Source of the DNA: a virus
Lineage: Duplodnaviria > Heunggongvirae > Uroviricota > Caudoviricetes
Reading direction: 5' to 3' (one strand)
DNA length: 42,847 bases
IMG/VR virus record: IMGVR_UViG_3300045988_015629
The translations under genes and the position numbers were made by a program. Below the pieces are notes generated by a model. The model worked only from the letters and a program-made list of their open reading frames with translations, did not search any database and was not told the origin of the DNA. Below are positions 1-42,847 of the stretch, piece after piece. Numbering within the stretch: position 1 is the first letter of the stretch; each line of letters begins with the position of its first letter.

Positions 1-271
1 CGGTAGTAGCGAGCGAAGTTTTCTCGTAGGTGGCGGCGGTAGCGCCTGGGATAGCGTTGTTATCTTTGTACCACTGGTATGTGTACGGGGCCAGACCGCC
101 AGTTACGGCTACGGTAAGAGTCATCGTCTGCCCCGTAGACTTGGTAGTGGTAGCGGCAAGTGCGGTAGAAAAAGATGCGGGCGAGATATTCGCCATATCG
201 ATTTCAACCTGACCATCGGCAGGAGAATCATCAGAAACACCGGTAATGCGACGTTTAATTACATCAACCAT
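1..271 (-). CDS. Ig-like domain virion protein, N-terminal part; gene crosses the window junction and continues at 42713..42792 (total about 116 aa)
   Basis: ATG at 271-269 preceded by AAGGAG; reading frame is continuous with the ORF ending at 42713 once the 55-bp terminal overlap is removed; translation contains a YTYQWYKDNNAIPGATAATY motif typical of phage Ig-like domains. Confidence 0.6.
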   Translation of the reverse strand, partial: MVDVIKRRITGVSDDSPADGQVEIDMANISPASFSTALAATTTKSTGQTMTLTVAVTGGLAPYTYQWYKDNNAIPGATAATYEKTSLATT

Positions 272-3315: not shown

Positions 3316-3316
3316 T

Positions 3317-10094: not shown

Positions 10095-10583
10095 TCAACC
10101 TTTCACCGCACGCCCGATTGCCTCAGCCTCCTGCCACGGTTTACCGTCGAACAATGCCAGACGTCCTGCGGTACGGCGACGCAGGCCAAGTAACGGTTTG
10201 CCGTTCTGGTTGATGAACAGCGCCAGCTTAGCCCGCAGCGTCGTAATATCACCCGAACGCAGCGCCTTACCGGTTCCGGTAGTAGCTGCTATCACACCAG
10301 CACCTGCGTTATACACCAGGTCACACACCGCATCGAACTGTGCCTGTGTAAGCGAATGGTGTGCTGCTGCGTCAACAGCAGCTACAGCCTTAGCCATATC
10401 GCGATTCAGTAACAGCAAGCCCTGTCCTGGTGTGATGGTCTTACCTGGTGTTACGTCTGGCCCGTAGTGACCATAACCAATAGTCAGGTACTTCTCGTTC
10501 GGCGTAGCGCGATACGCAGTTCCGCGGAATCCCTCGAACGCGGCACAGAAATGCAATCCATTATCTGAAATATTTCGAGACAC
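10095..10583 (-). CDS. endolysin, lysozyme-like muramidase (GH24-type)
   Basis: FEGFRGTAYRATPNEKYLTIGYGH matches the catalytic signature of T4/lambda-type phage lysozymes. Confidence 0.85.
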   Translation of the reverse strand: MSRNISDNGLHFCAAFEGFRGTAYRATPNEKYLTIGYGHYGPDVTPGKTITPGQGLLLLNRDMAKAVAAVDAAAHHSLTQAQFDAVCDLVYNAGAGVIAATTGTGKALRSGDITTLRAKLALFINQNGKPLLGLRRRTAGRLALFDGKPWQEAEAIGRAVKG

Positions 10584-10863
10584 GCTTATGCCCTCCGTAT
10601 GACAGCCACGCCTGGCGAATCTGGCGCAGCGCGACTAATGTGATTAATGTCTCAGGCAGCGTAGGCGACATGCTGCCCTGTAACAGGTGAATACATCCGG
10701 CGGCACAGACGATAGCAGTCAGGATATAGAGAACACGCCCGAACAGCCCGTCGTCCACGCGTTCATTATACACGTTGAACAGGGACGAAGCGCCCATTGA
10801 AAGCATTGTGACAAACCAGAATAGCTCAGTCATGCGGTCCTCCTGGGCGGGCAATATCGCCAC
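10561..10863 (-). CDS. membrane protein, holin or antiholin-like
   Basis: Two predicted hydrophobic helices; adjacent to holin and endolysin. Confidence 0.45.
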   Translation of the reverse strand: MAILPAQEDRMTELFWFVTMLSMGASSLFNVYNERVDDGLFGRVLYILTAIVCAAGCIHLLQGSMSPTLPETLITLVALRQIRQAWLSYGGHKRVSKYFR

Positions 10864-11134
10864 CCGATACGATGCCAGAAAGGCGGGAATAGATGGGCAT
10901 CCAGAGAACGGCGATAATAAAGCCCAGGCCAGCTATCTCACGCTCACCGGTAATACCGAACCATTGAGCGGCAAGAGGTGCACCGAAAATAGCACACGCG
11001 AAGCCGGTGAGAAGAAATACCAGTCCGTCAATCGGCCCGGATATAGACTTTTTATGTTGTCTTAGCCCGACCAATCCACCGACCAGTGCGGCAGCGAGAA
11101 GCCACCCCGTCACTGTTTCAGTAAATTTATCCAA
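10826..11134 (-). CDS. holin (putative, 3 hydrophobic segments)
   Basis: Three hydrophobic helices, charged C-terminus, directly upstream of endolysin; apparent TTG start with strong GGAGGA RBS. Confidence 0.55.
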   Translation of the reverse strand: MDKFTETVTGWLLAAALVGGLVGLRQHKKSISGPIDGLVFLLTGFACAIFGAPLAAQWFGITGEREIAGLGFIIAVLWMPIYSRLSGIVSGGDIARPGGPHD

Positions 11135-11209
11135 GATGAATCCTCCAGGTGCGTATTAAGTATGCAGTAACTGGAGGATACCACGGGTAGGAATTATCCT
11201 AATAGTTGT

Positions 11210-11503
11210 TTATTTATGTCTCCAGATGTATTGGCGTCTCTGCGGTTTCGTCGGAATATCATCGTATCCCAACGATTTCCAGTAATTAAATAGCCGATTA
11301 GCGATTGCTGCGCGTTCCTGTGTTTTAAACTCACCGAGATTCACAGCCTTCCCGTTCTGGAATCCACAGGCGCGGACCGCTTTGCGTCTGGCCTGAATCT
11401 CGGGGTACAGTGCATTACGGCGGCGCTTGTGTATACGCGTATTCGCTCTCGGCGACAGCGGCGCAAGGCCGCTTCGTTTCAGGATGTCAGTTGCTAACGA
11501 CAT
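11210..11503 (-). CDS. hypothetical basic protein (97 aa)
   Basis: ORF with K/R-rich N-terminus. Confidence 0.4.
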   Translation of the reverse strand: MSLATDILKRSGLAPLSPRANTRIHKRRRNALYPEIQARRKAVRACGFQNGKAVNLGEFKTQERAAIANRLFNYWKSLGYDDIPTKPQRRQYIWRHK

Positions 11504-11724
11504 TATTTCTCCTGTTTACCAAGTCGCTTAGGTGAGCAGATAGCGCGTACCTCCGAATCGTTGGGCTTGTCGCCCTGAAACAGGAAGTGCGCGTTCTCTG
11601 CGGCGCGTGCCGCTGACTGGCACGCCTCCATCGAATAAAACGTTTCCGATGCCGCTAGTTGCATCTGGCCCGCCGACAGTACCCAGATAAATAAGATGCT
11701 GGTCATCAGAAGTATTCCCCACAC
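11503..11724 (-). CDS. hypothetical secreted or membrane protein (73 aa)
   Basis: N-terminal hydrophobic signal-like segment. Confidence 0.4.
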   Translation of the reverse strand: MWGILLMTSILFIWVLSAGQMQLAASETFYSMEACQSAARAAENAHFLFQGDKPNDSEVRAICSPKRLGKQEK

Positions 11725-12221
11725 GTTTTACATACTTTCGTACCGAACGGCGCGGAGCCATCTGTTATTACATAATAGAAACTGTGTTTGCACTCCTGTG
11801 TACAGGCTGTTGCCCCATACTCAAGTCCGTCCCACTCACGCTTGCCGCATTCGCAGCAAAACAGGCTACCGGGCACGTTGTCCTTGTTGCCTTCGGCAAT
11901 AAACAATCCTGGAGCGATAATCCAATTGTGGTCACATTCCTGCGTATCTTCTTTTCGGCAACCAGATTGCTCCGAACCGTACGCACCTTTGCGGATAAGT
12001 TTGTATGCCTCCACGTCACCAGTAGCCTCGGCCAATGCCAGACGCAACTCCTTAACTTGCCCTGTCAGGTGCGATATGTGCTCAGATTTCTTAATGTTGT
12101 CTTCCCGCAACTCCTTAATCTGCACCTCATGCGCCAGGTCTTCGCACCGGTTGTTATTTACCTGATGCCGTAGCTGGTCAATCAGGTGCTCGAATACTTC
12201 GTTTTTGTTACTCACCATCAC
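11706..12221 (-). CDS. cysteine-rich putative zinc-binding protein (171 aa)
   Basis: Predicted coiled-coil N-terminus, C-terminal CCECG...CKTCG cysteine clusters. Confidence 0.45.
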   Translation of the reverse strand: MMVSNKNEVFEHLIDQLRHQVNNNRCEDLAHEVQIKELREDNIKKSEHISHLTGQVKELRLALAEATGDVEAYKLIRKGAYGSEQSGCRKEDTQECDHNWIIAPGLFIAEGNKDNVPGSLFCCECGKREWDGLEYGATACTQECKHSFYYVITDGSAPFGTKVCKTCGEYF

Positions 12222-12423
12222 CGTCCCCTTCCTCGCTAATTAGTTCGAATTTACCGTTTGCGTGCTTAATGGCTTCTTGCCCACAATGGTCGCAAACCAA
12301 CAGTTTATCGAACCCATCAAACTCATCCCCTACCACGCAAGACAGTACAAATTTATGCTTGGTGCATACTTCTTGCGGAGCACCGAAAATTGCGTGAAAA
12401 CATCTCGCCACTGCATTAAACAT
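12208..12423 (-). CDS. small zinc-binding protein (71 aa)
   Basis: C...C/H...CDHCG pattern and acidic tail; first gene after the promoter at about 12445-12480. Confidence 0.45.
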   Translation of the reverse strand: MFNAVARCFHAIFGAPQEVCTKHKFVLSCVVGDEFDGFDKLLVCDHCGQEAIKHANGKFELISEEGDGDGE

Positions 12424-12444
12424 CTTCCGTCTCTCCTCTCGCTT

Positions 12445-12480
12445 GTGTAAATGAATAGTAGCTTATTCTATCTTAGTGTG
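12445..12480 (-). promoter_or_regulatory. conserved early-type promoter, divergent copy (TTGCAC-N17-TACTAT with embedded GAATAG dyad)
   Basis: Related to the 36-bp elements at 13744-13779 and 35655-35690. Confidence 0.45.
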
Positions 12481-12490
12481 CAAGTAAATT

Positions 12491-12664
12491 TTATTGGTGT
12501 GTTATAGAGTCGATGAACGCCAGTAACCCCCTTTCCGCTTCTGCTTCTCTTTCTTCAAGCGACCAGGTAGCGGATTCCTCTGTTGCCGTTGCTAAATCGG
12601 TTTTCGCATCAACCATCGTGTCGATTAACGTGATTAGTCGTTCAGCCTGTTCTTTAGTAATCAT
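12491..12664 (-). CDS. hypothetical protein (57 aa, below the ORF-track threshold)
   Basis: Hand-translated ORF MITKEQAERLITLIDTMVDAKTDL... filling a gap between annotated early genes. Confidence 0.3.
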   Translation of the reverse strand: MITKEQAERLITLIDTMVDAKTDLATATEESATWSLEEREAEAERGLLAFIDSITHQ

Positions 12665-12798
12665 TGTTGCATCTCCTGCAATAGTCGCTTCGATTGTTGC
12701 GTTTGATGAAAGTGTCGCCTTTTGACGACACTAAGTTAAAGTTGTACGCTGCGGTGTAGCAGCGTAAGTCACTCAGTAAAATCCCAAACTATTGAACA

Positions 12799-12999
12799 TC
12801 ACACTTCTGGCGGCTCGGGTAACGGCATCCAGTGCGTCACGTACTTATCGTAGTGATTCCAGAAAGGCTTTCTCCCGTCATCAGGAACTATGTAATAATC
12901 GTGCTGAACTGCGTTATTTAACGTTTCATACACCAGGAACTCTTTATCCGTATACCCATTACCCGGCAGCATCTCACTACACTTAATCCACTCACCCAT
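12799..12999 (-). CDS. DUF551-like small phage protein
   Basis: C-terminal HWMPLPEPP motif characteristic of DUF551 proteins. Confidence 0.5.
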   Translation of the reverse strand: MGEWIKCSEMLPGNGYTDKEFLVYETLNNAVQHDYYIVPDDGRKPFWNHYDKYVTHWMPLPEPPEV

Positions 13000-13143
13000 A
13001 CCTCACACCTCTTTCAATCAAGGATTGCACACCAGCTTTCCACGCCCGCCACGCGAGACGCGTCTTAACGTTCAGGTACTCTTTCTTTGAACCCTTGTTA
13101 ACCGGCAGACCCTCGACCACAGCCCACCGTTCAAATGCTTCTC

Positions 13144-13332
13144 TCATACCAGAACCTCACATTCATCCCGATACACGAACAATAACGACCCTTTGTACTC
13201 AATCATAAAACCATAATGGTTGATGCTGAACGCCGGAAAAACATCACCTACCGAGATACCGAAATCTATAAGCCTGCGGTCAGTTATACGGACAAGCCTG
13301 CGGTCAGTTATACGGATTCGCATTAACGGCAA
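13144..13332 (-). CDS. hypothetical protein containing an 8-aa tandem repeat
   Basis: Encodes RITDRRLV RITDRRLI from a 24-bp tandem duplication at 13269-13316. Confidence 0.35.
   Translation of the reverse strand: MPLMRIRITDRRLVRITDRRLIDFGISVGDVFPAFSINHYGFMIEYKGSLLFVYRDECEVLV
13269..13316. repeat. 24-bp tandem direct repeat x2 (AGCCTGCGGTCAGTTATACGGA core)
   Basis: Two adjacent copies, 23/24 identical, read directly. Confidence 0.8.
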
Positions 13333-13526
13333 CCTCCCTCAGAGTCGTCGGCACAAGCATCACGATTCGATGCCGTTCGTATTGCTCGTAAGCTATTTAA
13401 CATTCGCTCGCTGGTAGATGTAATAACCGTTATACCGTCCGCCAGATGCACCTCGTAGCGTTCAGCTACGAAATATATTTCCTCGAAATCATGATGTTTC
13501 AGTTCTTCAAATAATTCTTCCATCAC
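13323..13526 (-). CDS. hypothetical acidic early protein (67 aa)
   Basis: ORF in early operon. Confidence 0.4.
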   Translation of the reverse strand: MMEELFEELKHHDFEEIYFVAERYEVHLADGITVITSTSERMLNSLRAIRTASNRDACADDSEGGCR

Positions 13527-13714
13527 TTCGCCCCTTTAAATTTAAAATTTTTGCCGATGAGTTTTAAGTTCTCCTCCGCTACGTATATTTGTGAATTTAC
13601 TCCTCTCACATTTTGCACGGTAACTACGTACTTTCCTGGAAATAAAGCAGATTTTAATTCAATTATGCCGTGTTTATCGTCGGAGTATTTAACCAACTGA
13701 CCACGTTTAAACAT
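13523..13714 (-). CDS. hypothetical early protein, first gene of the leftward early operon
   Basis: ATG at 13714 with AGGAG RBS; track ORF uses GTG at 13723. Confidence 0.45.
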   Translation of the reverse strand: MFKRGQLVKYSDDKHGIIELKSALFPGKYVVTVQNVRGVNSQIYVAEENLKLIGKNFKFKGAK

Positions 13715-13743
13715 AACCCTCACTCCTCTGTCTCGTTTCGATA

Positions 13744-13779
13744 AGTGAATAGTATCCTATTATGTTGGGGTGTGCAAGA
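13744..13779 (-). promoter_or_regulatory. conserved 36-bp early promoter element (minus-strand TTGCAC-N17-TACTAT; contains GAATAG-N4-CTATTA dyad)
   Basis: About 33/36 identical to 35655-35690 in the opposite orientation. Confidence 0.55.
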
Positions 13780-13822
13780 GAATAGTTACGTTGCCGTTGT
13801 GATTCTTTAGTTTAATGGGATA

Positions 13823-13880
13823 GCGAGCGAAACGAAACGAACGTGGTGCCGAAGGCACCAAGAGTGAGTGAGTGAGCTTG
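13823..13880. repeat. short tandem repeats flanking a hairpin: (CGAAA)2-3, GGTGCC-GAA-GGCACC, (GAGT)4
   Basis: Read directly; lies in the 457-bp divergent control region. Confidence 0.7.
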
Positions 13881-13989
13881 CGGATATAACCCACGGCAAA
13901 TCAGTAACTTAGATATTTAGGCGGGAATTACAATAGACTTTGGGCCTCCCAAACGCGCCAGCGAGCCTCACTCCACACGCTACACGTGC

Positions 13990-14080
13990 TCGTTTCGCCT
14001 GCCGCGCGCCGCGGTCGCTTGTTCATACTTCACAAGCTCAGGCTGAGCTTACCATATTTTTAAGTAAAAGTCAATACCGG
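13990..14080 (-). promoter_or_regulatory. conserved promoter-plus-leader element B (paralog of element A)
   Basis: -35 TTGACT at 14069-14074 and -10 TAAGCT at 14046-14051 on the minus strand; core 14005-14042 identical to 3158-3195. Confidence 0.55.
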
Positions 14081-14121
14081 TAGCATCTTTTGTATCTTAG
14101 TAACTTTGTGTGGTGTTTTGG

Positions 14122-14150
14122 TTGCTTTTACATTCCCGCTATCCTATACT
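14122..14150 (+). promoter_or_regulatory. sigma70-like promoter TTGCTT-N17-TATACT for the rightward replication operon
   Basis: Hexamers with 17-bp spacing about 35 bp upstream of the first plus-strand gene. Confidence 0.45.
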
Positions 14151-14181
14151 TGGCTTCACCAAACAAACAGGAGATTTAAAA

Positions 14182-14364
14182 ATGCAACATTACATGACCC
14201 AGAATGAAGTAGCCGAGCGTATCGGGGTGACACGTCAGACAATTAATAACTGGTTGCGCAGTGGTAAATTCCCGGATTGTTGTATTAAGGTTATGGGCCG
14301 CCGGATGCCGGGAACATTCGACCGTAATAAAGTTGAAGCGTGGATTAAGGAGAACGTGAAATGA
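14182..14364 (+). CDS. small HTH DNA-binding protein (excisionase/AlpA-like fold inferred)
   Basis: MTQNEVAERIGVTRQTINNWLRSGKFP helix-turn-helix signature; ATG at 14182 with GGAG RBS (track ORF uses GTG at 14110). Confidence 0.6.
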   Translation: MQHYMTQNEVAERIGVTRQTINNWLRSGKFPDCCIKVMGRRMPGTFDRNKVEAWIKENVK

Positions 14365-14594
14365 TTGGGCGTATGGGTTGTAGCTTCCGCGAAGACGGCA
14401 GCATTAAATATTATTTCAAGATTGCGTCAAATATAACCGACGATGGGTGTTATGTAGAACTTTTCCCTTATAACTTTTGTGGACCCACTAAAATAGTTAA
14501 ATTTTCTATAGAGGATATCCTTGATTGCAGTTTTTACCGTAGCGAAGGAGAGTGGGTTAATGCGGTGCGTAGACAAAAGAAACCCCAACGCTAG
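14361..14594 (+). CDS. hypothetical protein (77 aa), AT-rich
   Basis: ORF with noticeably lower GC than its neighbours. Confidence 0.4.
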   Translation: MIGRMGCSFREDGSIKYYFKIASNITDDGCYVELFPYNFCGPTKIVKFSIEDILDCSFYRSEGEWVNAVRRQKKPQR

Positions 14595-14644
14595 AACGTC
14601 GGGGCCGAAGCATAAATCATCAAAGTAAGCACAAGGATTATACA

Positions 14645-14773
14645 ATGACGAAGTTAATAGTTCCACAGCTACGCCGCCAGAAACACGGCGCTGATTTCTT
14701 CGCACCGGTAAAGATGAACCGCGCAATGCGCCGTATGCAGGAAGCCTTAGAACGTGCGGAGAAAAAGAAATGA
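14645..14773 (+). CDS. hypothetical small basic protein (42 aa)
   Basis: Hand-translated ORF whose stop overlaps the primase-helicase start. Confidence 0.3.
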   Translation: MTKLIVPQLRRQKHGADFFAPVKMNRAMRRMQEALERAEKKK

Positions 14774-17031
14774 ATATTGTTTTTGCAACGCTGCGTAACA
14801 CATTCGATAAAAACCCTGTAGCGCGTGAAATGCCGCTGGAGCAGTTCGTAGAGTATGTCTGTGATACATCGAAGCGTTTATCCGTGGACCCGTCGTGGAC
14901 TAAGGAAGAGTACGACGCCGCCAAGATTAAACAGAAAGCTATCGCACCTGTTGGTGGTCGCCGTAAGAACGCGATTCTGGAAGACAGTGTGGTTAAGTTC
15001 GACTTTGACCATCTCAACCGTACTCAGTACCGCAACCTGACACGCAAATTTAAGAATGCGCCGTTCTTCAACATTCTGCATACAACGGCGTCACACCGGC
15101 ACGCGTGCAAAAACGGGGATTACGCCTTCCGCGTTCTGGTTCCGGCTCGCACGCCGTTTAACTCTAACGATGCGTGGATGGTGCAACGTGCTATTTGTGC
15201 CGAGTTAGAAATAGACGAAGCATTGCGCGACCACTGCACGGAAGACGGCAATCGCCTTATCTACCTGCCGCATAAAGAGTCAAAGATAACGGTTACAGAA
15301 GGGCGGGTTATCCGTGCTGAGCGGTACATCAAGAAAGCCGAAGAGATGGGATTGCGTAAGCGTGAAGCTAAGACGCTTGCTGCCGATGAGCACGGGCTTA
15401 ACGCAGATATAGCCCATTTCTGCGAAGCTGAGTTAGGTCTTGACGCTCTATCTTCCGGCCGCGGGTACGAAGTGCCTTGCCCTAACGAACACCTGCACAC
15501 CGGAAAAGGTTCCACCAGCATTATGCTTGACGGTAAAGAAGTGCGCTTCGTGTGCCAGCACACAAACAACGGCGCTTGCACTGAACTTAACCGTCGACAA
15601 CATTTGGCCTTGCGTATGTGCGGACTGCCAGACGAGCTTAACGTAGACAAGCAACCTATCAGTATTAACAGCATTCGTGCGGCTTTGCCGGATTTACCGG
15701 ACGAAGAGATTGAGGAATTGCACCGCACAGAGAACGAAGAGCCTGTAACTTGCACGCTGGAAGACCTTGAAGACGAGCCGGAAGTAGAAAAAGAACCTGC
15801 TTACTCCGTCGTAGACGGCCTTATGCAGACTAATGAATCCTTCTACATTTGCGCAAAGTCCCACACTGGTAAGTCAACATTTAGTATGGCGATTGACGCC
15901 GCTATTGCCGCTGAAAAAAGATATGCGTTCGGCGGGGCTGAGGTCGCAGAAGGACATGCGTTCATTTTTGCGGGTGAAGGTGCGCAGTCGTTCGAGCGAC
16001 ATAAAAAGTCTTTGCAGATTGCCCTCGGGGATAGCCTGGACCGCTTGCACATTATCGATTGTGTCGCCGATGGGTGTAATTTACTTGATGAGGCGTGGCG
16101 CCGCCAGGCGGTGAGAATGATGCGCCGTGTTGCCGGTGAAGAGAAAATTGTAAAGGTTACGTTTGATACCCTACAAACTTGCATACCGGGCTTCGACGAA
16201 AACGATAACAGGTCGATGAAAGAAGCGGCGCAGGCGCTTAACGAAATAGCGGCAACGCTTAACGCTGCGGTCGGCGCTATGGTGCACCCGACTAAAAACA
16301 TCGACGAAACTGTGCCGTCTGAAAACGGCATGATGCCGAAGGGTGGAAGTGATTTTCACAACTCCATCGATAACGGGATGTTCCTGCATAAACCAGACAA
16401 CGACAATAACTTAGAGATAAACCTGTATCACATAAAGAACCGAAATGGAGAACGGCAGAAAGCCAGAGGATTCGTAATACAGAAGATTAAGATAGCGGAG
16501 CCGCCGGAAAAGAAAGAACCAACTCACAACTTCATGGGGCTTCCGGAAGGGTATAGCAGTGATGATGTGCGCGATTTTGACGCGGGAAATCCGCATATTG
16601 ATGTCTTTGTCAACTTCAACGCCTTCTCTGTCTTTGTGAAGAAAGTAGAAGGTATGACTGACGAACAGAAGGAAGCCGTTAAAGAAAAGGTAGGCCAGTT
16701 CGAGAAACTGGATTCCAAAGAGGCTACGGTTATTTACGCATTAGGTAAATTGCAGGAGCAAGGCGACGACAAGCGAGGGTTCTCTATGTCAGCTATCGTC
16801 AAAGCGGCGAAAGAAGATAGTTACGGCGTACCGATTAACGCTAATAACGACCTTCGAAAGAAACTGGAAGAGATGCACGAGGCGGGGGTTATCGTCTCTG
16901 GGCTGGATAACAACAACAGGCCCATCCCTAAGCAATACAGGTTGCCGTGGGGTATAAACGACAACAAAATTCCTAAGACAATATACGAACCGAATGAAAT
17001 GCTGACAGTGACAGAGGAGGATTTGGAATAG
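14770..17031 (+). CDS. DNA primase/helicase (zinc-binding primase-like N-terminal region plus RecA-like P-loop domain)
   Basis: Cys/His cluster CPNEHLH...CQHTNNGAC; Walker A AKSHTGKST; 753 aa at the head of the replication module. Confidence 0.65.
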   Translation: MNIVFATLRNTFDKNPVAREMPLEQFVEYVCDTSKRLSVDPSWTKEEYDAAKIKQKAIAPVGGRRKNAILEDSVVKFDFDHLNRTQYRNLTRKFKNAPFFNILHTTASHRHACKNGDYAFRVLVPARTPFNSNDAWMVQRAICAELEIDEALRDHCTEDGNRLIYLPHKESKITVTEGRVIRAERYIKKAEEMGLRKREAKTLAADEHGLNADIAHFCEAELGLDALSSGRGYEVPCPNEHLHTGKGSTSIMLDGKEVRFVCQHTNNGACTELNRRQHLALRMCGLPDELNVDKQPISINSIRAALPDLPDEEIEELHRTENEEPVTCTLEDLEDEPEVEKEPAYSVVDGLMQTNESFYICAKSHTGKSTFSMAIDAAIAAEKRYAFGGAEVAEGHAFIFAGEGAQSFERHKKSLQIALGDSLDRLHIIDCVADGCNLLDEAWRRQAVRMMRRVAGEEKIVKVTFDTLQTCIPGFDENDNRSMKEAAQALNEIAATLNAAVGAMVHPTKNIDETVPSENGMMPKGGSDFHNSIDNGMFLHKPDNDNNLEINLYHIKNRNGERQKARGFVIQKIKIAEPPEKKEPTHNFMGLPEGYSSDDVRDFDAGNPHIDVFVNFNAFSVFVKKVEGMTDEQKEAVKEKVGQFEKLDSKEATVIYALGKLQEQGDDKRGFSMSAIVKAAKEDSYGVPINANNDLRKKLEEMHEAGVIVSGLDNNNRPIPKQYRLPWGINDNKIPKTIYEPNEMLTVTEEDLE

Positions 17032-17037
17032 GTAAAA

Positions 17038-17064
17038 ATAAAGGGGCGTTAAGCCCCTTCACCC
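17038..17064. terminator. bidirectional terminator between the convergent primase-helicase and XRE genes
   Basis: AGGGGC-GTTA-GCCCCT hairpin with A-run upstream. Confidence 0.55.
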
Positions 17065-17264
17065 AACGCCAGCCACTTGGCGTCTACTTGCAGCACTTCC
17101 GCCAGTTTAAACAGCGTCGCTGGGCGGACGTCCTGAGTTACCCCAAGTGCCAGCTGGTTAATCGCGCCTTGGGAAACACCGGCCAGGACAGCCAGATGGC
17201 GCTGGGAGATACCGAGTTCTTTACGGCGTTGCTCTACACGGATACCTAGTTCAGATGGTTGCAT
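17049..17264 (-). CDS. XRE-family HTH transcriptional regulator (Cro/CI-like)
   Basis: LGISQRHLAVLAGVSQGAINQLALG is a canonical XRE helix-turn-helix; AAGGAG RBS; opposite strand to its neighbours. Confidence 0.75.
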   Translation of the reverse strand: MQPSELGIRVEQRRKELGISQRHLAVLAGVSQGAINQLALGVTQDVRPATLFKLAEVLQVDAKWLALGEGA

Positions 17265-17285
17265 GCCAATTACTCCTTAGTCAGT

Positions 17286-17357
17286 TGATATGTGAATAGT
17301 ACCATATTAATTATTTTAGAAAAGCCCATTGACAAGTGAATAGTTCGCTATTATAGT
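17286..17357. promoter_or_regulatory. divergent promoter/operator region: plus-strand TTGACA-N17-TATAGT at 17329-17357 and two GAATAG-N4-(C/A)TATTA dyads
   Basis: Dyads at about 17294-17309 and 17338-17353. Confidence 0.55.
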
Positions 17358-17388
17358 TAGCCCATACCAAACGAGAGGAGAGAAACAA

Positions 17389-17910
17389 ATGTTAGAGAAA
17401 TTCTTGGTATTACTGGAACGTTTCGTAGTCGCCCACGAACTGATTGCTGCAAACAGTGTGAAACAACCGACTAGCAAATCTGTAGGTGAATTGACTGTTG
17501 ACGTCGCGGTAACTGGGGTAGAGACAGTTAAAAAAGAACTGGCTAAAGCACTTGAAGAAGTCGAGAAGGCGAAAGAAATCCCGGTTGAAGGTGAAGACAT
17601 CGTCGACACTAAACCAGCAGAAGAAGAGAAGCCGAAGCGCAAGCCGCGTAAGGACAAAGTAGAGGAACCAACGCCAGAGCCGGAAGAAGAGAAAGAAGAA
17701 GTCGATTACCAGTCTCTGCGCGACCAGATTCAGGCTATCGACGATGCGATTAACGAAGGCCCAAGCGATGCCGCGTGCGACGATTCTGACGAACTGCTGG
17801 AAGAGTTTACCGGTAAGAAGATGAAGATTGCAGCGATTAAAGACGAAGACCTGGCTGAGTATCTGGAGCGCCTGACAGCAATCAAGAACAAGTATTTCGA
17901 AGAAGAATAA
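17389..17910 (+). CDS. highly acidic protein (173 aa), function unknown
   Basis: E/D/K-rich low-complexity middle section, acidic C-terminal part. Confidence 0.5.
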   Translation: MLEKFLVLLERFVVAHELIAANSVKQPTSKSVGELTVDVAVTGVETVKKELAKALEEVEKAKEIPVEGEDIVDTKPAEEEKPKRKPRKDKVEEPTPEPEEEKEEVDYQSLRDQIQAIDDAINEGPSDAACDDSDELLEEFTGKKMKIAAIKDEDLAEYLERLTAIKNKYFEEE

Positions 17911-17911
17911 C

Positions 17912-17938
17912 TATCCCGCGGCCTTCGGGCCGCTTTAA
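17912..17938 (+). terminator. terminator-like hairpin after the acidic protein gene
   Basis: GCGGCC-TTCG-GGCCGC followed by TTTA. Confidence 0.4.
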
Positions 17939-17953
17939 CTGAGGGTCGGAATT

Positions 17954-18226
17954 ATGATTTACCAACTCTACCGCGCCGTAGACAGGCGGGATAGCACAGA
18001 GGCGCTATGGCTGTTACGTGCGCCGTCTGGCTCGCACCAGATGGAAGATATGGCGTACTTAGGCAAAGTGCCACGGCCTAAAGACATAGGCCGCCACGTG
18101 TCACATATTAAGCGCACGACTTTCGCCAAACCGGACTTTTACGTCTTCGAGTCGATGTATGGCTGGGCTATGCACTGCGACCATAAGACACGACATTTAA
18201 TTGACCAGTGGGAGAGCAGGGTATGA
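17954..18226 (+). CDS. hypothetical protein (90 aa)
   Basis: ORF whose stop overlaps the exonuclease start (ATGA). Confidence 0.45.
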   Translation: MIYQLYRAVDRRDSTEALWLLRAPSGSHQMEDMAYLGKVPRPKDIGRHVSHIKRTTFAKPDFYVFESMYGWAMHCDHKTRHLIDQWESRV

Positions 18227-19473
18227 TTTTAAAGGAACGCGGCGGCAATAACGATGTGCACGCCTTACTGTCGCCGTCTGGCGCTAAAAAGTGGCTGGCG
18301 TGCAGTGCATCACTGGCCTGTGAGAAAGATATTCCCAACACGTCTGGTAAAGCCGCCGTTACAGGGACTGCATGCCACACCATAGCGGAGATGCACCTTA
18401 ACCAGTACATCAAAGGCACTGCTCTGCCATTAGAGCGTGAAGTCGGCGCTTACGTGCTGGATGAAGGTAAAGGCCAGATTAAGGCGCTAATCAGCCCAAT
18501 GAAAGGCGCGGTACTGATTACGGCGGACATGATTGAGCAGGTGCGCAAGTACACCGACTACTGCAAAGCGATTATCGACGTAGCGACTTACGCCAAGCTG
18601 GAAATGCGAGTCAATCTTACTGAGGTATTGCATCCTGGGTATGAAGGTGTCGAGACGTTCGGAACGGCTGACCTCGTTGCTGTCCAGGAACTGGCGAACA
18701 CCGACGAGCACATGCTCATTATTGGCGACCTTAAAACTGGACGGCATCGTGTTGAAGCGAAAGAAAACAAGCAGCTTATGCTTTACGCTCTCGGTGTTTA
18801 TCGCCGACTCAAGAGACGTTATAACATCACAGTAGTGCGCCTGGTCATCTTCCAGCCGTACGCGGGGGGTGCGTCAGAGTGGGACATCTCGGTCGAAGGT
18901 CTGGAACTGTTCGCTAAGTTCGCACAGAAACGGGCACTGTTAGCGCTTGATGCTTATTTCCGTGGAAAGAAGAACCTGAAAGCGTCGGACTTTAAACCGT
19001 CGGTCGATGGTTGCCAGTGGTGCCGGTTCTCTGAACAGTGTGCCGCGCGTACAAAGACGGTTAATTCTGTACTGGCGGAAGAACTTGAAGACGACTTTGT
19101 GCTGGAACTGACGACGGAGCAACTCGTAGTTGAGTATGAGAAGTTGCCGCTGTTGCGCCAGCACATCGACAAGGTTGAGAAAGCGATGTCCGCCGCATTG
19201 CATTCCGGTAAGAAAGTGCCAGGGTACAAACTGGTAGAAGGCCGCCCGGGTAATCGTGCGTGGAAAGATGCCGATGCGATTGAAGTGTCACACGGCGACA
19301 TTCTCAAAAAAGAGGTATTGATGTCCCCTACGGAGGCAGCAAAAGTTCTTTCTGCGGATGAGATGGCAGCGCTTGAGCCGTTTATTACCCGTAAGCCAGG
19401 CGCACCATGTGTCGCAACGGCAGACGACAAACGTCCTGAGTGGAATCAGGTTAGTGAAGAAGATTTGGAATAA
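18223..19473 (+). CDS. PD-(D/E)XK exonuclease with C-terminal cysteine cluster (RecB/Cas4-like)
   Basis: GTADLVAV...IGDLKTG and QLMLYALG motifs plus C...CQWCRF..C; ATG at 18223 with GGAG RBS. Confidence 0.7.
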   Translation: MILKERGGNNDVHALLSPSGAKKWLACSASLACEKDIPNTSGKAAVTGTACHTIAEMHLNQYIKGTALPLEREVGAYVLDEGKGQIKALISPMKGAVLITADMIEQVRKYTDYCKAIIDVATYAKLEMRVNLTEVLHPGYEGVETFGTADLVAVQELANTDEHMLIIGDLKTGRHRVEAKENKQLMLYALGVYRRLKRRYNITVVRLVIFQPYAGGASEWDISVEGLELFAKFAQKRALLALDAYFRGKKNLKASDFKPSVDGCQWCRFSEQCAARTKTVNSVLAEELEDDFVLELTTEQLVVEYEKLPLLRQHIDKVEKAMSAALHSGKKVPGYKLVEGRPGNRAWKDADAIEVSHGDILKKEVLMSPTEAAKVLSADEMAALEPFITRKPGAPCVATADDKRPEWNQVSEEDLE

Positions 19474-19477
19474 AGTG

Positions 19478-19506
19478 TTGACACCCGAATAGTTAGCTAT
19501 TATAGT
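19478..19506 (+). promoter_or_regulatory. conserved promoter TTGACA-N17-TATAGT with embedded GAATAG-N4-CTATTA dyad
   Basis: About 25/29 identical to the 17329-17357 promoter. Confidence 0.55.
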
Positions 19507-19559
19507 TCTAATCACTGGCCGGGCAGTTCCCGGAGTAAACTGAAAAGCGAGAAATCACG

Positions 19560-20186
19560 ATGGGTATTAAACTGAATCTGCGTAAAGTAAACACTGCATG
19601 GGTTAACGTATTCGAACGCGAAAAAGACCGTGAAAACGATGATGGCTCAATCACTAAAGGCCAGTACAGCGCGACTATCATCCTGCCGTCTGACCACGCA
19701 CAAATCGACGCGCTCTACGACACCGTTTACGCTGTGGTTGAAGATGCGTTGGGCGCAGCTGCCGCTGAGAAGTGGATGAAGTCCAACTACGGCGAAGGTA
19801 AGCACATGGATAAATGTGCGATTAAAGACATTGCCGAGCGCGACAATCCGTTTGAAGACTTCCCGGAAGGCTTCTACTTCAAGGCGAAGGCACAGAAACA
19901 GCCACTGATTGTAACCTCTAAAAAAGGCGAGACTCAGGTAGAACAGGACTTCAATGTAGACGGCGAACAGATTGAAGGTGAACAGGTTTACAGCGGCTGC
20001 GTCGCTAACGTAAGCGTTGAAATCTGGTTCAGCCAGAAATACAAAGTCCTCGGCGTTAACCTGCTGGCTATTAAATACGTTGGTGAAGGTAAAGCGTTTG
20101 GCGGTTCTAAAGTAGCCGCAAGCGTCGATGACCTTGAAGACGATGAAGAGGATGAAGCACCGCGCCGCGAACGTCGTCGCCGTTAA
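19560..20186 (+). CDS. putative single-stranded DNA-binding protein
   Basis: 208 aa with an acidic C-terminal tail (DDLEDDEEDE) between the exonuclease and polymerase genes; call from context, not motif. Confidence 0.4.
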   Translation: MGIKLNLRKVNTAWVNVFEREKDRENDDGSITKGQYSATIILPSDHAQIDALYDTVYAVVEDALGAAAAEKWMKSNYGEGKHMDKCAIKDIAERDNPFEDFPEGFYFKAKAQKQPLIVTSKKGETQVEQDFNVDGEQIEGEQVYSGCVANVSVEIWFSQKYKVLGVNLLAIKYVGEGKAFGGSKVAASVDDLEDDEEDEAPRRERRRR

Positions 20187-22628: not shown

Positions 22629-22916
22629 ATGAGTACGCCTGAGGGGCGCGTGCAGAAATACGCAAAAGAGCGATTCGAGGCCCTGGGAGGCCTCGTACGC
22701 AAATTGTCGTACGAAAATAGAGCGGGCGCCCCCGACCTGCTGGTAATTCTCCCTGGTGGCATCATCTGGTTCGTCGAGGTTAAGAAAGACGAAAACACGA
22801 AGCCGGACCCGCACCAGTTACGAGAGCACGAGCGGATGCGTAAACGTGGTGCAAATGTTTTTGTCGTTGGTTCGTTTAAACAGGTTGACGACCTAATAGC
22901 GGGCTATTATAGTTAA
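22629..22916 (+). CDS. VRR-NUC domain nuclease
   Basis: PDLLVIL...WFVEVKKD PD-(D/E)XK arrangement typical of VRR-NUC; 95 aa. Confidence 0.65.
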   Translation: MSTPEGRVQKYAKERFEALGGLVRKLSYENRAGAPDLLVILPGGIIWFVEVKKDENTKPDPHQLREHERMRKRGANVFVVGSFKQVDDLIAGYYS

Positions 22917-25576: not shown

Positions 25577-25608
25577 AGAAAAGGCCCCGTTTGGGGCCTT
25601 AGTTTTAT
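25576..25608. terminator. bidirectional rho-independent terminator at the replication/tailspike convergence
   Basis: GGCCCCGTTTGGGGCC hairpin flanked by AGAAAA and TTAGTTTTA. Confidence 0.75.
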
Positions 25609-28559
25609 TTATCTTCTAGTGCTGCCAGCCTCTTCTCGAACTCGCGCATCTTCTTACGCTGATAGGCAATCTCTATGAAGAACATCTGGTCCGCCCTAAC
25701 CCCCCATCTGCCGCCGGGAGGGGATACTTGTACAGTCTGACCATCTTCATCAATATCATACGTAGCTTCAATTGAGTCGTAGCACAAGAAAGCATATTTA
25801 CAGTATGTAGAACCCTCCTCCATAAGCCCATGGTTGACCAAGATGTCTCGCACATCTTGGGCTATCACACCGAAGTGTATCCTTGCAGTGTCACCCTTGA
25901 TTGCTAGGCTTTCAAGCCACTTAAAAGATATTACATGTATATCCTCCCATGCGGTAAGGAGTTGTCCCTCAATTTCCTCTTTGTTCGTCTTAAGTGTACC
26001 ATCAGACGTGTTTATCGTACCGGTGGTCGCGTACACCGTAGTCCACCTATTACCTGCCGAACCTAAAGACACTTGCGAGTCTAAGTAAGGAAGGAAATTG
26101 TTGTATGAGTAGAAGCCTCCTGACGCATACATAATAGCCCTGTTAGGCCTTGCATGGTTTGCCCCGTACAGTTGCAGCAACGCACCATCGGAACTGGATG
26201 CACCATCACCACCGCTAACTATCAGTCTTTGACCCGATGGGGTTTTAGTGGGGACTGTTTTTGAAATCAGCCCGTAATCACCATCAAACCGTGCACGCAC
26301 GGCAGACTGTTGTGTGCCATCATATTCCAGACCAGTTACATGCAGGGAGTACACGCTTACATCATTGTCAAACGTTAAAGGTGCTTCTACATGGCGTACA
26401 CCATCTACCCCCATGGCGACAGGTATTGTACGGTTAGGAGTTGCTCCGTATTTGAAATCACGTGATACATACGGGTGGTCTTCAATCTTTATCCGGTAGC
26501 TATATAAGTCAGCCGGGTGCCCATCATGTTTGTACCATAACTTCGCACTGTTATCCCCGATGCTCCAGGGAGAGAAGAAGTCTTCCCCTCCAAAGATATA
26601 GTACAACCAGCCATCTTTAACACAGACAGAGCCGACGCCGACGGCAGTGTTAACGATATGGCCCTGGTATATTTGGTCGGTAATATTAAACCACTGAACA
26701 TCATCTAAAGATGAAGGCCAGGACGACACATTGACTTTGCACATAAAGGTCCTCGGATACGAACCTTCATAGCGGCTGCCCGGCTCGCCACCTTCCCACT
26801 CACCAAATGCACGTTCTGTACCAAAGATGTAGAGATAGTCACCTACTTTAGCGAACGGAAGATTGGAGTGATGTACATTGTTCGGGAATCGCAAGTAGCT
26901 CCAGTTTTGCCCAGAATCGGTGCTCATCGCCAGTGTAGAGCCGGGGGAAGTAGGTAATGTGCCGCGTGTGGTAAGGTAGAGCACACCGCCATAACTTTTC
27001 ACACACGGCTCAGAAGCGTTATCAGCGTATGCCTGAGCGACAGTGCGACGAACGAATACGCCTGGATTGTCATACACGTTACTAAAATACAAGACACCGA
27101 GACGCCGAGGGGACACATCGCCGTTGTGATAGCCGACAGCGATAGTGTAGTTAGCATCATCTATAACCGCAAAACTATGTGTCTCCGTGACACACAAATC
27201 AGCGTTAGTGGAGTATGCCACCCCCGGCAATTCGGTAATTTCCCATGGGCTGTCCCAGAATAGCGTTGCGAAGTTCCAGGTAACCCCCGCATTGTTTATG
27301 GTGGAGCCCGCAGGGCTTGAGAGCGTAACAGTGAACGTATTTCGGTTAATTATAGACGCAACCGTCATATTACCCGATACGCCAGTTGCCGATGTATTAG
27401 AGAAGTTAACCGCATCTCCTGCTTTTAGGCCATGATTTTCTATGACAATGGTAGCAGTAGTGGAGCCAGAACTAATAGTTATTCCGCCGGTTGGGTGTCT
27501 AAAATACGGCATTGGGCGTGACCAAAGTTCTGCCTTCTTCATCCGCATATTAGATAAGTAGCGGGTTTCTATAACTGCATATAATCGGTTGCCGCACGTA
27601 CCCATGCTCATGCAGTGGTAGTTAACTCTGTCCGTAGAAACACTAGCATTATAGTCAGCATGGATTGGAGTCAACCACTCAGGCATTGACCAAGTCTGCC
27701 CGTCGTCTCCAGAGCGAACCCAAGCTACATGTAAGTTTTGAACACCATGTCGTTCGCCCGCCATAAACGGGGCGTAAATAACATGGTCGTAGACGAAAGT
27801 TTTATCCTGCGTCCATGCGTTGTAGAACGGGGTATCCGTCACCTTAGTTAGTGAGCCGTTAAAGAAGCCATCAGCTACATAAGTAAGCGGTTGCCCGGCT
27901 ACGCGCTCGTAAACGAATGCAGCATTCTTAAATTTACTAATGTCAGGTAATTGGGAAACTTTATAAGTCAAACCCCTGCCGTCTATAATCCAATTGTTGG
28001 GGGAAGCTGCTAATACATTAAAAATAGATTGAGTATCATCAGTTACGCCGTCGCCCACGGCGCCCCATGCGCGCGGGTCGTATTCGTCCTTCCATCGCGC
28101 CACATGTAAATCTGGGTACAGAATTGCACCGTTTACATCAGATATTTGCTGCCGCAGTATGACCGACCCGACAGGCTGCCACGCCCCATCTGCCACGCCA
28201 CCGGTGGACTGCGGAGAAGATGACGCCGGGATAATTTTTGGTAGAGCACCCAACCAATAGTACCAATCCCCGTCACCGCCAGAGGACGACGGCCACAAAA
28301 CTGCGGTGTTTCGGTCGTTAGCGGATAGTGTACCGCCTGACGTGAAATCAAAATCTGCCAGTTTAAAACCAGCATCACGCAACACGGCAGGTAACGTCTT
28401 CTGGGTCTGTCCAGTAACCTGATTTGTCGCGTAATCAATATCGGCACCACCGGCGACACCGCCGGATTTGCCAGTGGTAACCTCGGCCTCGAAAATCTGA
28501 TGTTTCTTGGCGGTTTGTAAATCCGCCAGGCTTAAAACGTCACCGCATCCGCTTGACAT
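25605..28559 (-). CDS. tailspike / tail fibre protein with C-terminal intramolecular chaperone (peptidase S74-like) domain
   Basis: 984 aa; C-terminal ...SLGSAGNRWTTVYATTGTINTSDGTLKTNKEEIEG... resembles the autoproteolytic chaperone domain of endosialidase-type tailspikes; RBS AAAGAGGA. Confidence 0.75.
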   Translation of the reverse strand: MSSGCGDVLSLADLQTAKKHQIFEAEVTTGKSGGVAGGADIDYATNQVTGQTQKTLPAVLRDAGFKLADFDFTSGGTLSANDRNTAVLWPSSSGGDGDWYYWLGALPKIIPASSSPQSTGGVADGAWQPVGSVILRQQISDVNGAILYPDLHVARWKDEYDPRAWGAVGDGVTDDTQSIFNVLAASPNNWIIDGRGLTYKVSQLPDISKFKNAAFVYERVAGQPLTYVADGFFNGSLTKVTDTPFYNAWTQDKTFVYDHVIYAPFMAGERHGVQNLHVAWVRSGDDGQTWSMPEWLTPIHADYNASVSTDRVNYHCMSMGTCGNRLYAVIETRYLSNMRMKKAELWSRPMPYFRHPTGGITISSGSTTATIVIENHGLKAGDAVNFSNTSATGVSGNMTVASIINRNTFTVTLSSPAGSTINNAGVTWNFATLFWDSPWEITELPGVAYSTNADLCVTETHSFAVIDDANYTIAVGYHNGDVSPRRLGVLYFSNVYDNPGVFVRRTVAQAYADNASEPCVKSYGGVLYLTTRGTLPTSPGSTLAMSTDSGQNWSYLRFPNNVHHSNLPFAKVGDYLYIFGTERAFGEWEGGEPGSRYEGSYPRTFMCKVNVSSWPSSLDDVQWFNITDQIYQGHIVNTAVGVGSVCVKDGWLYYIFGGEDFFSPWSIGDNSAKLWYKHDGHPADLYSYRIKIEDHPYVSRDFKYGATPNRTIPVAMGVDGVRHVEAPLTFDNDVSVYSLHVTGLEYDGTQQSAVRARFDGDYGLISKTVPTKTPSGQRLIVSGGDGASSSDGALLQLYGANHARPNRAIMYASGGFYSYNNFLPYLDSQVSLGSAGNRWTTVYATTGTINTSDGTLKTNKEEIEGQLLTAWEDIHVISFKWLESLAIKGDTARIHFGVIAQDVRDILVNHGLMEEGSTYCKYAFLCYDSIEATYDIDEDGQTVQVSPPGGRWGVRADQMFFIEIAYQRKKMREFEKRLAALEDK

Positions 28560-35539: not shown

Positions 35540-35647
35540 TCTTTAATCCTTTGGTTAAGAGGTTACAGGTTAACGATAAATGCGCCAGACGGGAACCACC
35601 CGCTTTTCGTGTGCGACACTAGGCGCAAACTTATTCTATCACATTAC

Positions 35648-35690
35648 TTGCACACCCCAATATAATAGGGTACTATTCACTTACACCAAC
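35648..35690. promoter_or_regulatory. conserved 36-bp promoter element, divergent (plus-strand TTGCAC-N17-TACTAT for the island; minus-strand promoter for the chaperone/tape-measure operon)
   Basis: Reverse complement is about 33/36 identical to 13744-13779. Confidence 0.55.
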
Positions 35691-37548: not shown

Positions 37549-38102
37549 TGGCTAAGGTAATTATTCTTAATGGTCCTGCGGGCTGCGGGAAAGACACACT
37601 TGCTAGGGCGCTGGTAGAAATGGGCTTTGCGAAGGGTGTCGCCAGTTTCAAGAATCCGATGTTCAATATTGCTATGGCTGCGTTAGGCCAGGATGCTTAC
37701 CGCGAGTTTCTCGACGGCTACGACGACCGGGCGCGGAAAGAAAAGCCAGAGGGTTTCCTTAACGGGTTGTCTCGGCGTCAGTTCATGATTGCCATTTCCG
37801 AGCAATTCATTAAACCGGTGTTCGGTGATGATTATTTCGGTAAGTATCTTGCCGGAAACTTGCCCGACGGCGACGAAGTTTTTGTGGTGTCTGATGGCGG
37901 GTTCGCCAGCGAAGTAGCCCCTATCGTTGCCGCGGGGCATGATGTGAGAATCGTCCGCTTGCACAGAGACGGCCATACGTTTGAAGGGGACAGCCGCGGT
38001 TACCTGTACGATATTGATGGTGTAAAAGATTATGACACCTACATCATACCGGGTTACGTTAAATCGAACGCTATAGGCATTGCTTTAAGATTAGGTTTGT
38101 AA
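37548..38102 (+). CDS. P-loop nucleotide/polynucleotide kinase (dNMP-kinase-like)
   Basis: N-terminal Walker A VIILNGPAGCGKDT; the GKDT variant is reminiscent of phage dNMP kinases. Confidence 0.7.
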   Translation: MAKVIILNGPAGCGKDTLARALVEMGFAKGVASFKNPMFNIAMAALGQDAYREFLDGYDDRARKEKPEGFLNGLSRRQFMIAISEQFIKPVFGDDYFGKYLAGNLPDGDEVFVVSDGGFASEVAPIVAAGHDVRIVRLHRDGHTFEGDSRGYLYDIDGVKDYDTYIIPGYVKSNAIGIALRLGL

Positions 38103-38133
38103 GAAAAAGGCCCCAAACGGGGCCTTAGTTTTA
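38103..38133. terminator. bidirectional rho-independent terminator at the island/major-tail convergence
   Basis: GGCCCCAAACGGGGCC hairpin flanked by AAGAAAAA and TTAGTTTTA; same stem as the 25576-25608 terminator. Confidence 0.75.
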
Positions 38134-39303
38134 TGCGTATGTGATACGCTGAATAACAATAGACGACTGGTACTGGTTGCCAGTAGCCTGGCCTTCAATA
38201 GACTGAGTGATTGACTCAGGTCCTCCAATCTCAGGTGTAACCGCCGTAAGTTCTGCACGTTTCAAACTGAAAGACATAGCCCCATTTACCCCAGCCAGAA
38301 TAGAGTTAATCTCCACCTGCTGCTCGTTGATAAACTTCTGAATCATCGCCATGTCGTACAGCTTACCGGAGATGGAGAAGGTGTTAGCTGCTCGGCTACG
38401 CTCCACAAACGCTACGTTAGTGTTGCCGAGTTCGAACTGTGCGGACGCGCTGTTGTCGTTGGTGATGGTCAGGCTGTCGCAACGCAACGGCGTAGAACCG
38501 TCGAACACAGAAACATCGACCGAGGAGAATGGCTCGTCACCAAACGTAACAGAGGAGAAATCAGAACCAGACGGCTGCGTGGTGAGAATCTCCTGACTGC
38601 GACCGATGAACGGGAAGCTGCCAGTTACCATAGCGTTAACAGCCTGTTCGATGGTAAAACCAGAAACTTCCACGCCTTTGGTTAGTGTGTACGCGTCAGT
38701 CCCGCCGCACTGGCCTTTGTACCAGGTGAGAATAGAGAACGTCTTGCACTGGCTTCCCGTTTCCAGTTTATCCCCTGTCTTAGCGGCGGTAGTTACTGTC
38801 TCTGTGGTCAGGGTATGCTGGATACCCGCCCCGGTCACTACCAGCGCCTCTACTGCAGTTACGATAAACGGTTTTGCGTTGTCACCGGTTAAGTCGGTAA
38901 ACGCAATCAGGTCGCCCACTTCAACGCCGTCAGAAATAAAGCTACCTTCGGCACGGGTAAAGGTCTTGCCTGCAGGCGCGACGGTAATTGATAGCCTGGT
39001 CAGAGAACTACCGGATTGCCATGTAGAGCCTAAAGCACCCGCCAGCCAGTCGTCCTGGCTTTTCGAGCTAAGCTCAATAGCGTATTCTCCGCTAACCTGC
39101 TTGTTACCGGTGCGGATTGACGTAGTTTCACGGCTGCCGTCCAGTTCGTTGGAGGTCAGCGTGTCGCGGGTAATGGCAGGAACGCCACCTGTGTTACGCA
39201 ATGGCGACCAGACCGGGTTAGTCGGTGTTACGCCAGGGGTAGTTTCTGCCACATAGAATTGCGCAGTATTCGCGCCCTTAAAAGGAGTTGTAGCCATATT
39301 CAC
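38131..39303 (-). CDS. major tail (tube) protein, putative
   Basis: 390-aa protein at the end of the head-tail joining cluster and upstream of the chaperones. Confidence 0.5.
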   Translation of the reverse strand: MNMATTPFKGANTAQFYVAETTPGVTPTNPVWSPLRNTGGVPAITRDTLTSNELDGSRETTSIRTGNKQVSGEYAIELSSKSQDDWLAGALGSTWQSGSSLTRLSITVAPAGKTFTRAEGSFISDGVEVGDLIAFTDLTGDNAKPFIVTAVEALVVTGAGIQHTLTTETVTTAAKTGDKLETGSQCKTFSILTWYKGQCGGTDAYTLTKGVEVSGFTIEQAVNAMVTGSFPFIGRSQEILTTQPSGSDFSSVTFGDEPFSSVDVSVFDGSTPLRCDSLTITNDNSASAQFELGNTNVAFVERSRAANTFSISGKLYDMAMIQKFINEQQVEINSILAGVNGAMSFSLKRAELTAVTPEIGGPESITQSIEGQATGNQYQSSIVIQRITYA

Positions 39304-41691: not shown

Positions 41692-42441
41692 TCACCCCTT
41701 CTTACAGTTATCAAAGTGCCACCTCTTTAGAAGAGATAGCGCCCCTTCGGTTCCGCAATGTGGGCATACCCCGCGCGGGCGTTTCATTCCAGTAAGTTTA
41801 TCTGAAATTTTCTTGACAGTCTCGCCCTTTAACGTATGGCCCTTCTTAAAACTTCCGGAGTTAGGTTTTCTATTAACCTTGCCAACGATTCTATTTGGGT
41901 CCGCGAACTGGCATTTCTTGCAGCAATATTTACGCGCTCGTGATTTAAAACGGTAGGGGATCGGCTGGTCGCATGTTACACATCGTTGTGGGTTTGCCAT
42001 GTAATGCTCTATTCTGGCTTTTCTACTTGCAGTTTCCCCGGTAGCAATTCCTTTATTCCACGCCTTTTGCCCTAGATGTGCTTGTCTGAGATTTTCTATA
42101 CGTTTATCAGAAAATTTAACACCAGTATTCAACCTGGACATCTCTATAGCCCAAGCCTCTTTCGCCAACTTAAAGGAATGTGAGGTAACTTTTGACCTTT
42201 GATTGTTTTTAGGGTTAATACACATAACCCTCCAGGCGAAAGCTAGTTCTTTAGTCCCGTGTATCTTATAGAGAAGCCAATGCGCAATAAAATGCTGTCT
42301 AGCGCTCAAAGATACAATATTGTCAAAAGTATCTCCACCACCCATGCATTTCGGGACTATGTGATGTTTTTCGGTATACCCACTAAACGGATTGATTTTT
42401 GCGTTCGATATTAACTGTTCATAGATTTTGGCGTAGTTCAT
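41692..42441 (-). mobile_element. HNH homing endonuclease (free-standing)
   Basis: HHIVPKCMGGGDTFDNIVSLSARQHFIAHW is a canonical HNH motif; C-terminal CxxC pairs; gene is visibly AT-richer than its flanks; TGGTATAAT-like extended -10 upstream. Confidence 0.85.
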
Positions 42442-42712: not shown

Positions 42713-42847
42713 TTAAGATACAATTGCTCCGGTGCTGCTGGAGATAATATTACCGTATACATCGTGGACAACCACTTTATACGTACCGGAATCGGTAGTA
42801 GCGAGCGAAGTTTTCTCGTAGGTGGCGGCGGTAGCGCCTGGGATAGC
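42713..42847 (-). CDS. Ig-like domain virion protein, C-terminal part of the junction-spanning gene (see 1..271)
   Basis: Frame continuous with 1..271 across the terminal overlap; stop codon at 42713-42715. Confidence 0.6.
   Translation of the reverse strand, partial: AIPGATAATYEKTSLATTDSGTYKVVVHDVYGNIISSSTGAIVS
42793..42847. repeat. 55-bp exact terminal direct repeat (identical to 1-55)
   Basis: Direct comparison of the first and last 55 nt. Confidence 0.95.

Follow-up and report, generated by a model that had tools for sequence, protein, structure and literature searches.

Headful packaging of DNA has already been described in Kagunavirus, and the members of this genus are the systems closest to the phage considered here. 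For Snoke (MK931441), whose host is E. coli 4s and not a K1 strain, PhageTerm predicts a pac-type headful mechanism, and PCR and Sanger sequencing were used to close the raw SPAdes contig at its ends (PMC6776784). The PhageTerm call for Shashou is also pac (PMC6776780); both are computational calls on reads, given in short genome announcements, and not biochemistry. In two further relatives, the kagunavirus fBC-Eco01 (PMC9825357) and vB-EcoS_179-3 (PMC13507304), PhageTerm finds no termini, which is commonly the outcome for a permuted genome. A phylogeny of the large terminase subunit (TerL) places the K1G/K1H-type enzymes beside those of headful phages and away from the clade of phages with direct terminal repeats (DTRs) (PMC5582158). 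As to what repeated contig ends can signify, the SPAdes contig of the T4-like phage 132 had 55-bp overlapping ends, which were read as circular closure and trimmed (PMC8483715).

The window, i.e. the whole stretch of 42,847 nt that was analysed, is assigned by sequence comparison to Kagunavirus (Guernseyvirinae), as a K1G-like, K1-type coliphage. It is 88-96% identical to many Kagunavirus records, its first half being matched best overall by MirsaeidiM_Esher4 and its second by K1G. K1G (Kagunavirus K1G, NC_027993; a record of 43,587 bp opened at the terminase gene) shares its gene order with the window and, like it, has a K1 endosialidase-type tailspike; a 984-aa open reading frame of the window (25605-28559) lies within a stretch that matches the tailspike endosialidase/sialidase genes of relatives. 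For window positions 1-20000, however, K1G is outside the 30 best records, so this part is less similar to K1G and the genome is a mosaic. Snoke has the same order of head genes and, at the position that corresponds to the gene discussed below, a gene for an Ig-like capsid decoration protein of 113 aa, but it lacks the homing endonuclease gene found beside that gene in the window, and it carries an intein in its head morphogenesis gene. The window contains no detectable tRNA genes and no Rfam families at gathering thresholds.

How do the two ends of the window relate to each other? Positions 1-55 and 42793-42847 are identical at 55 of 55 bases, and 55 nt is the longest prefix of the window that is also a suffix, the identity stopping at that fixed length. 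A third copy of the 55-mer was sought on both strands of the window and is absent, with none on the reverse strand. Within the unique 42,792 bp, exact direct repeats reach 38 nt at most. A chance match of the ends was considered and rejected (probability of a 55-nt end match, about 8e-34). When one copy is dropped, the unique genome is a circular map of 42,792 bp. The join creates a reading frame on the minus strand, and the features concerned are as follows.

1-55, no strand assigned: left copy of the terminal overlap, genuine genome sequence; on the minus strand it codes for residues 73-91 of the junction gene
42793-42847, no strand assigned: right copy of the terminal overlap, redundant and for trimming, which leaves the 42,792-bp unique circle
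1-271, minus strand: 5' part of the predicted Hoc-like Ig-domain gene (start, codons 1-90 and the first base of codon 91)
42713-42792, minus strand: 3' part of the same gene (remainder of codon 91 to codon 116, then TAA)

With position 42792 joined to position 1, the open reading frame runs from 271 to 1 and on from 42792 to 42713. Its 271 + 80 = 351 nt make up 116 codons and a TAA in an unbroken frame; the ATG start and the TAA stop are complementary to 269-271 and 42713-42715, respectively. Codon 91 spans the join, and residues 73-91 are those encoded by the 55-nt overlap. In the linear window the gene is reduced to a 90-codon 5' piece that has no stop and a 44-codon 3' piece that has no start, and the list of open reading frames omits both because both run past the window ends. 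The product matches the profile phrog_4069 ('Hoc-like head decoration') over positions 1-116 of 116 (E 6.8e-57) and Pfam Ig_3 marginally (30.7 bits, with a cut-off of 30). It is also identical to K1G gp11 (YP_009168791.1) at 113 of 116 residues (97%), the two proteins being of equal length. With this full-length family match, the junction gene is predicted to encode a Hoc-like Ig-domain head decoration protein of the phrog_4069 family. The 116-aa gene is itself ordinary and is cut in two only by the arbitrary start point. The initial annotation had reported the terminal identity, a unique genome of about 42,792 bp, and an Ig-like gene divided between 42713..42792 and 1..271; all three are borne out, with the coordinates of the gene correct and its joined frame free of breaks.

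Around the junction, late genes follow one another on the minus strand over a long stretch, in the order scaffold, major head protein, head fibre, Hoc-like gene, 59-aa open reading frame, homing endonuclease and head-tail adaptor. There is a second Hoc-like gene at 3317-3778, the equivalent of K1G gp05, and it does not contain the 55-mer. A scan for promoters and terminators around the right end gave nothing that exceeds the shuffled expectation.

Is the join found in nature, that is, in relatives of the phage? A 2,612-nt query drawn across the closed junction is covered in full (100%) by one match to K1G, homing endonuclease insert included; the identity is 96.2%, and the match occupies positions 6294-8904 of the record, far from its ends. 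The junction site is internal in all 30 records listed, in either orientation and anywhere between about 5.9 and 38 kb, and among these listed relatives no record begins or ends at the 55-nt site. In a three-way alignment K1G has a single copy of the 55-mer (54/55), flanked by the right-end and the left-end sequence of the window; a four-way alignment adds two IMG/VR contigs (45,080 and 5,638 bp), in which the exact 55-mer (55/55) occurs once, internally, with the same flanks. The join is real, since in K1G and these two contigs the 55-mer occurs once, internally, between the two end sequences of the window. Window positions 20001-42792 are 100% covered by K1G in a megablast comparison (95.7% identity), and the match ends at K1G position 7637, within gp11 (7366-7716), which is homologous to the junction gene. 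Gene complement and order are as in K1G across the regions compared, which are those from the terminase to the tail genes and 20001-42792. At 42.8 kb, the window is also similar in size to the listed relatives, which range from 40.8 to 45.8 kb.

The terminal identity is thus almost certainly a by-product of assembly, and the phage genome a circle of 42,792 bp. The initial annotation had come to the same reading of an assembler overlap as against DTRs, and had argued from length, as DTRs usually span hundreds of bp. The conclusion stands, while the length argument is its weakest part; what decides the matter is that the junction gene is intact and the relatives are contiguous, with the repeat lying within a conserved coding sequence and a single bridging copy lying internally in K1G and in the two IMG/VR contigs.

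How might the overlap have arisen? In a short-read de Bruijn graph, permuted molecules, like any closed map, would yield reads that form a closed cycle, and if the cycle is put out as a linear contig from an arbitrary k-mer, that starting k-mer would be repeated at the end. A k-mer size of 55 is a default, standard setting of SPAdes and metaSPAdes. We infer both the assembler and k = 55 as the source of the 55-nt overlap. As in the k-mer overlaps of circular SPAdes and metaSPAdes contigs with k = 55, the repeat is exact and confined to the ends, and trimming restores continuity; there is no observable difference between the window and the documented SPAdes overlap. The cycle would close through pac headful packaging from concatemers, which would provide permuted, redundant virion molecules, presumably in the present isolate as well. 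The cut point has landed by chance in codon 91 of the 116-codon Hoc-like gene, amid the late operon of the minus strand; a break within a codon of a conserved gene would be expected because the break point is arbitrary.

The actual ends of the virion DNA are set by the terminase and not by the ends of a contig. The two terminase genes are:

6385-7635, minus strand: large terminase subunit TerL (Pfam Terminase_6N and Terminase_6C)
7632-8216, minus strand: small terminase subunit TerS (phrog_3064 'terminase', E 3e-73)

TerL is 100% identical to that of K1H and shares 409 of 416 residues (98%) with that of Snoke, while TerS shares 181 of 194 (93%) with the Snoke protein, for which the annotation of the Snoke depositors gives an HHpred match of 99.4% to P22 gp3. 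Phmmer searches of the PDB chain sequences with TerL (E 0.01) and TerS (E 1) returned no match and therewith no link to a biochemically characterised terminase. Large terminases all share one fold, and the fold does not discriminate between packaging types. Circular closure is uninformative on packaging type, because cos, pac and DTR phages (the repeat of the last being collapsed) all close. Headful packaging is suggested instead by the terminase, which is nearly identical to that of Snoke, together with the PhageTerm pac calls in relatives. Most likely, then, the virion DNA would be circularly permuted and terminally redundant, without fixed ends, and would be packaged by the headful from concatemers. 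In P22, Sf6 and SPP1 the pac site is situated in or near the small terminase gene; in the window one might likewise infer a pac site in or near the TerS gene (7632-8216). A literature search on Jerseyvirinae with circular permutation returned nothing. The view of the initial annotation that the window boundaries are not the physical ends agrees with the 98% and 93% identity of TerL and TerS to those of Snoke, pac headful by PhageTerm. It had also left cos, pac and DTR all open, and in this respect the evidence from the family now favours pac headful packaging, which means no unique ends.

Could the 55 nt nevertheless be a genuine short DTR, made by a terminase that cuts at a fixed site in the manner of T7? 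An exact direct repeat is present at both termini as given, and short DTRs are found in other groups, e.g. those of 165-289 bp in K1E/K1F-like podophages (PMC5582158); the likeness of the window to T7-type DTRs is, however, confined to the formal appearance of an exact end repeat. True DTRs are fixed ends common to relatives, whose records start or stop there, whereas the listed relatives of this phage are continuous at the site and none of their records starts or stops at it. The repeat of the window is also placed inside a conserved coding gene, where a fixed end would cut codon 91, and its length coincides exactly with a standard assembler k. Moreover, the TerL is 98% identical to that of Snoke, which was called pac headful, and TerL proteins of the K1G type cluster with headful and not with DTR terminases (PMC5582158). 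A genuine short DTR is therefore very improbable. The same slight chance is given to its corollary, a site-specific terminase cut within the Hoc-like gene such that the gene is intact only on circularised or concatemeric DNA, which nothing favours. A false circularisation, in which the 55-mer would occur twice in the real genome (e.g. in two Ig-domain genes) and a segment would have been dropped at the join, is the least probable of all. It could draw on the existence of the second Hoc-like gene (3317-3778) and on the ability of repeats of at least k to short-circuit an assembly graph, but that gene lacks the 55-mer, K1G and two independent IMG/VR contigs have identical flanks around one copy, gene order continues over the junction as it does in K1G in the regions compared, and the genome size is within the range of the family. 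On these comparisons, false circularisation through a repeated Ig-domain sequence is excluded for practical purposes.

A different question is whether the circle is valid as a map while the virion DNA has fixed ends elsewhere, either cos ends or a longer DTR that the assembler has collapsed, and is not permuted. Assemblies of cos and DTR phages close into circles too; one kagunavirus paper words its terminase in cos terms, although generically (PMC9825357), and in two relatives the termini could not be determined (PMC9825357, PMC13507304). Against this are the PhageTerm pac calls for Snoke and Shashou, and the failure to find termini in fBC-Eco01 is itself typical of a permuted genome (PMC9825357). 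The Terminase_6N/6C architecture of TerL, and a TerS that is 93% identical to a Snoke protein of the P22 gp3 type (by HHpred), argue in the same direction, as does the absence of internal exact repeats longer than 38 nt, though a collapsed DTR would not show in this way. Fixed ends elsewhere are thus improbable, if somewhat less so than a DTR of 55 nt.

An assembly overlap, the preferred reading, has practical value only. The repeat is an ordinary bookkeeping artefact and not a real biological feature; 55 nt should be trimmed and the circle re-opened, e.g. at the gene for the small terminase subunit, where K1G and Snoke are opened, whereupon the Hoc-like decoration gene and the late operon can be annotated intact. 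The terminal identity is usable as evidence of completeness, but it should not be called a DTR or serve as the basis for a packaging mechanism.

Several other elements of the genome deserve a description. TerL (6385-7635) has counterparts of at least 99% identity in 59 phage records, of the K1H and Snoke type, but its identity to the TerL of other kagunaviruses (EM1, Bas76, phiWAO78-1) and to that of jerseyviruses (SETP3, SE2) is only about 54%. Two TerL lineages therefore circulate in Guernseyvirinae, which points to module exchange. Beside the Hoc-like gene there is an insertion:

41692-42441, minus strand: HNH/mobE-like homing endonuclease of 249 aa, between the head-tail adaptor gene and the small open reading frame beside the Hoc-like gene

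This insertion is present in K1G and MirsaeidiM_Esher4, and most other kagunaviruses are without it; those without it align to the junction region as two pieces, with 67% coverage.

A family of promoter-like sites consists of TTGAC... followed by TATTAT, with the palindrome AATAGT-N4-CTATT between the -35 and -10 positions. A second family is that of GC-rich hairpins at the boundaries of gene blocks. Their locations are:

13738-13767, 17285-17314, 17329-17358, 19478-19507 and 22885-22914, plus strand: promoter-like sites bearing the palindrome (repeat family)
12445-12487 and 35644-35686, inverted: inverted copies of these sites (same repeat family)
3294-3315, 4863-4884, 25581-25602 and 38105-38134, no strand assigned: GC-rich hairpins of the AAAGCCCC-TTTC-GGGGCTT type, at gene-block boundaries

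The promoter sites with AATAGT-N4-CTATT amount to five plus-strand matches, where 0.01 are expected, plus the two inverted ones. The palindrome looks like a putative operator that overlaps promoters of the plus-strand replication genes. Two of the GC-rich hairpins form an inverted pair (25581-25607 and 38100-38126), and the hairpins probably serve as intrinsic terminators in both directions where transcription units converge. In the early region, at 13270-13316, there are also two exact 23-nt direct repeats (AAGCCTGCGGTCAGTTATACGGA) one base apart.

Two paralogous non-coding units are present on the minus strand, unit A from about 3235 to 2985 and unit B from about 14082 to 13800. Each has a sigma-70-like promoter (TTGACT, 17 nt, TAAGCT), and they have in common a 70-nt segment that is 89% identical and holds the 38-nt longest internal repeat. 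Each comprises about 200 nt that contain no open reading frame of 60 aa or more, and has a GC-rich terminator hairpin, which in unit A is a clear intrinsic terminator right before the ribosome-binding site of the spanin gene. Immediately downstream on the minus strand are the spanin, scaffold and major head genes in the case of unit A, and small open reading frames in that of unit B. About 180 phage records, of Kagunavirus and of Salmonella phages, contain unit A with 95-100% identity, and the stretch is almost always unannotated; 65 of these records are Salmonella phages, at least one of them a Jerseyvirus. Relative to the Jerseyvirus FSL SP-101, unit A stands out as a peak of conservation (95-100%), compared with 62-90% for the flanking coding DNA. 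The 5,426 complete E. coli genomes searched do not contain it, and Rfam yields no match to either unit at E <= 1. No more than about 20 records contain a full-length homologue of unit B; others contain a third variant.

A covariance model built from seven sequences detected 60 instances from 56 sources, and its IMG/VR hits are all on contigs of about 41-45 kb, the genome size of the family, or on shorter fragments. In the model-fitted alignment, 96.7% of the cells of the long helix are paired, and four of its pairs vary on both sides (e.g. CG/UA/AU and UA/AU/GC). For the whole structure 95.3% of the cells pair in this model-fitted alignment, versus 34-40% with the partners slid; a third helix is unsupported in it. 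What role might such units have? A search of the literature on Jerseyvirus antitermination found nothing. The layout, in two paralogous copies, is one of promoter, structured RNA, terminator and late genes, and is reminiscent of the processive-antitermination leaders putL/putR of HK022 or of the lambda pR'-6S-tR' region. Purely as a hypothesis, the units may be either antitermination leaders of the put-like or Q/6S-like kind or an sRNA moron.
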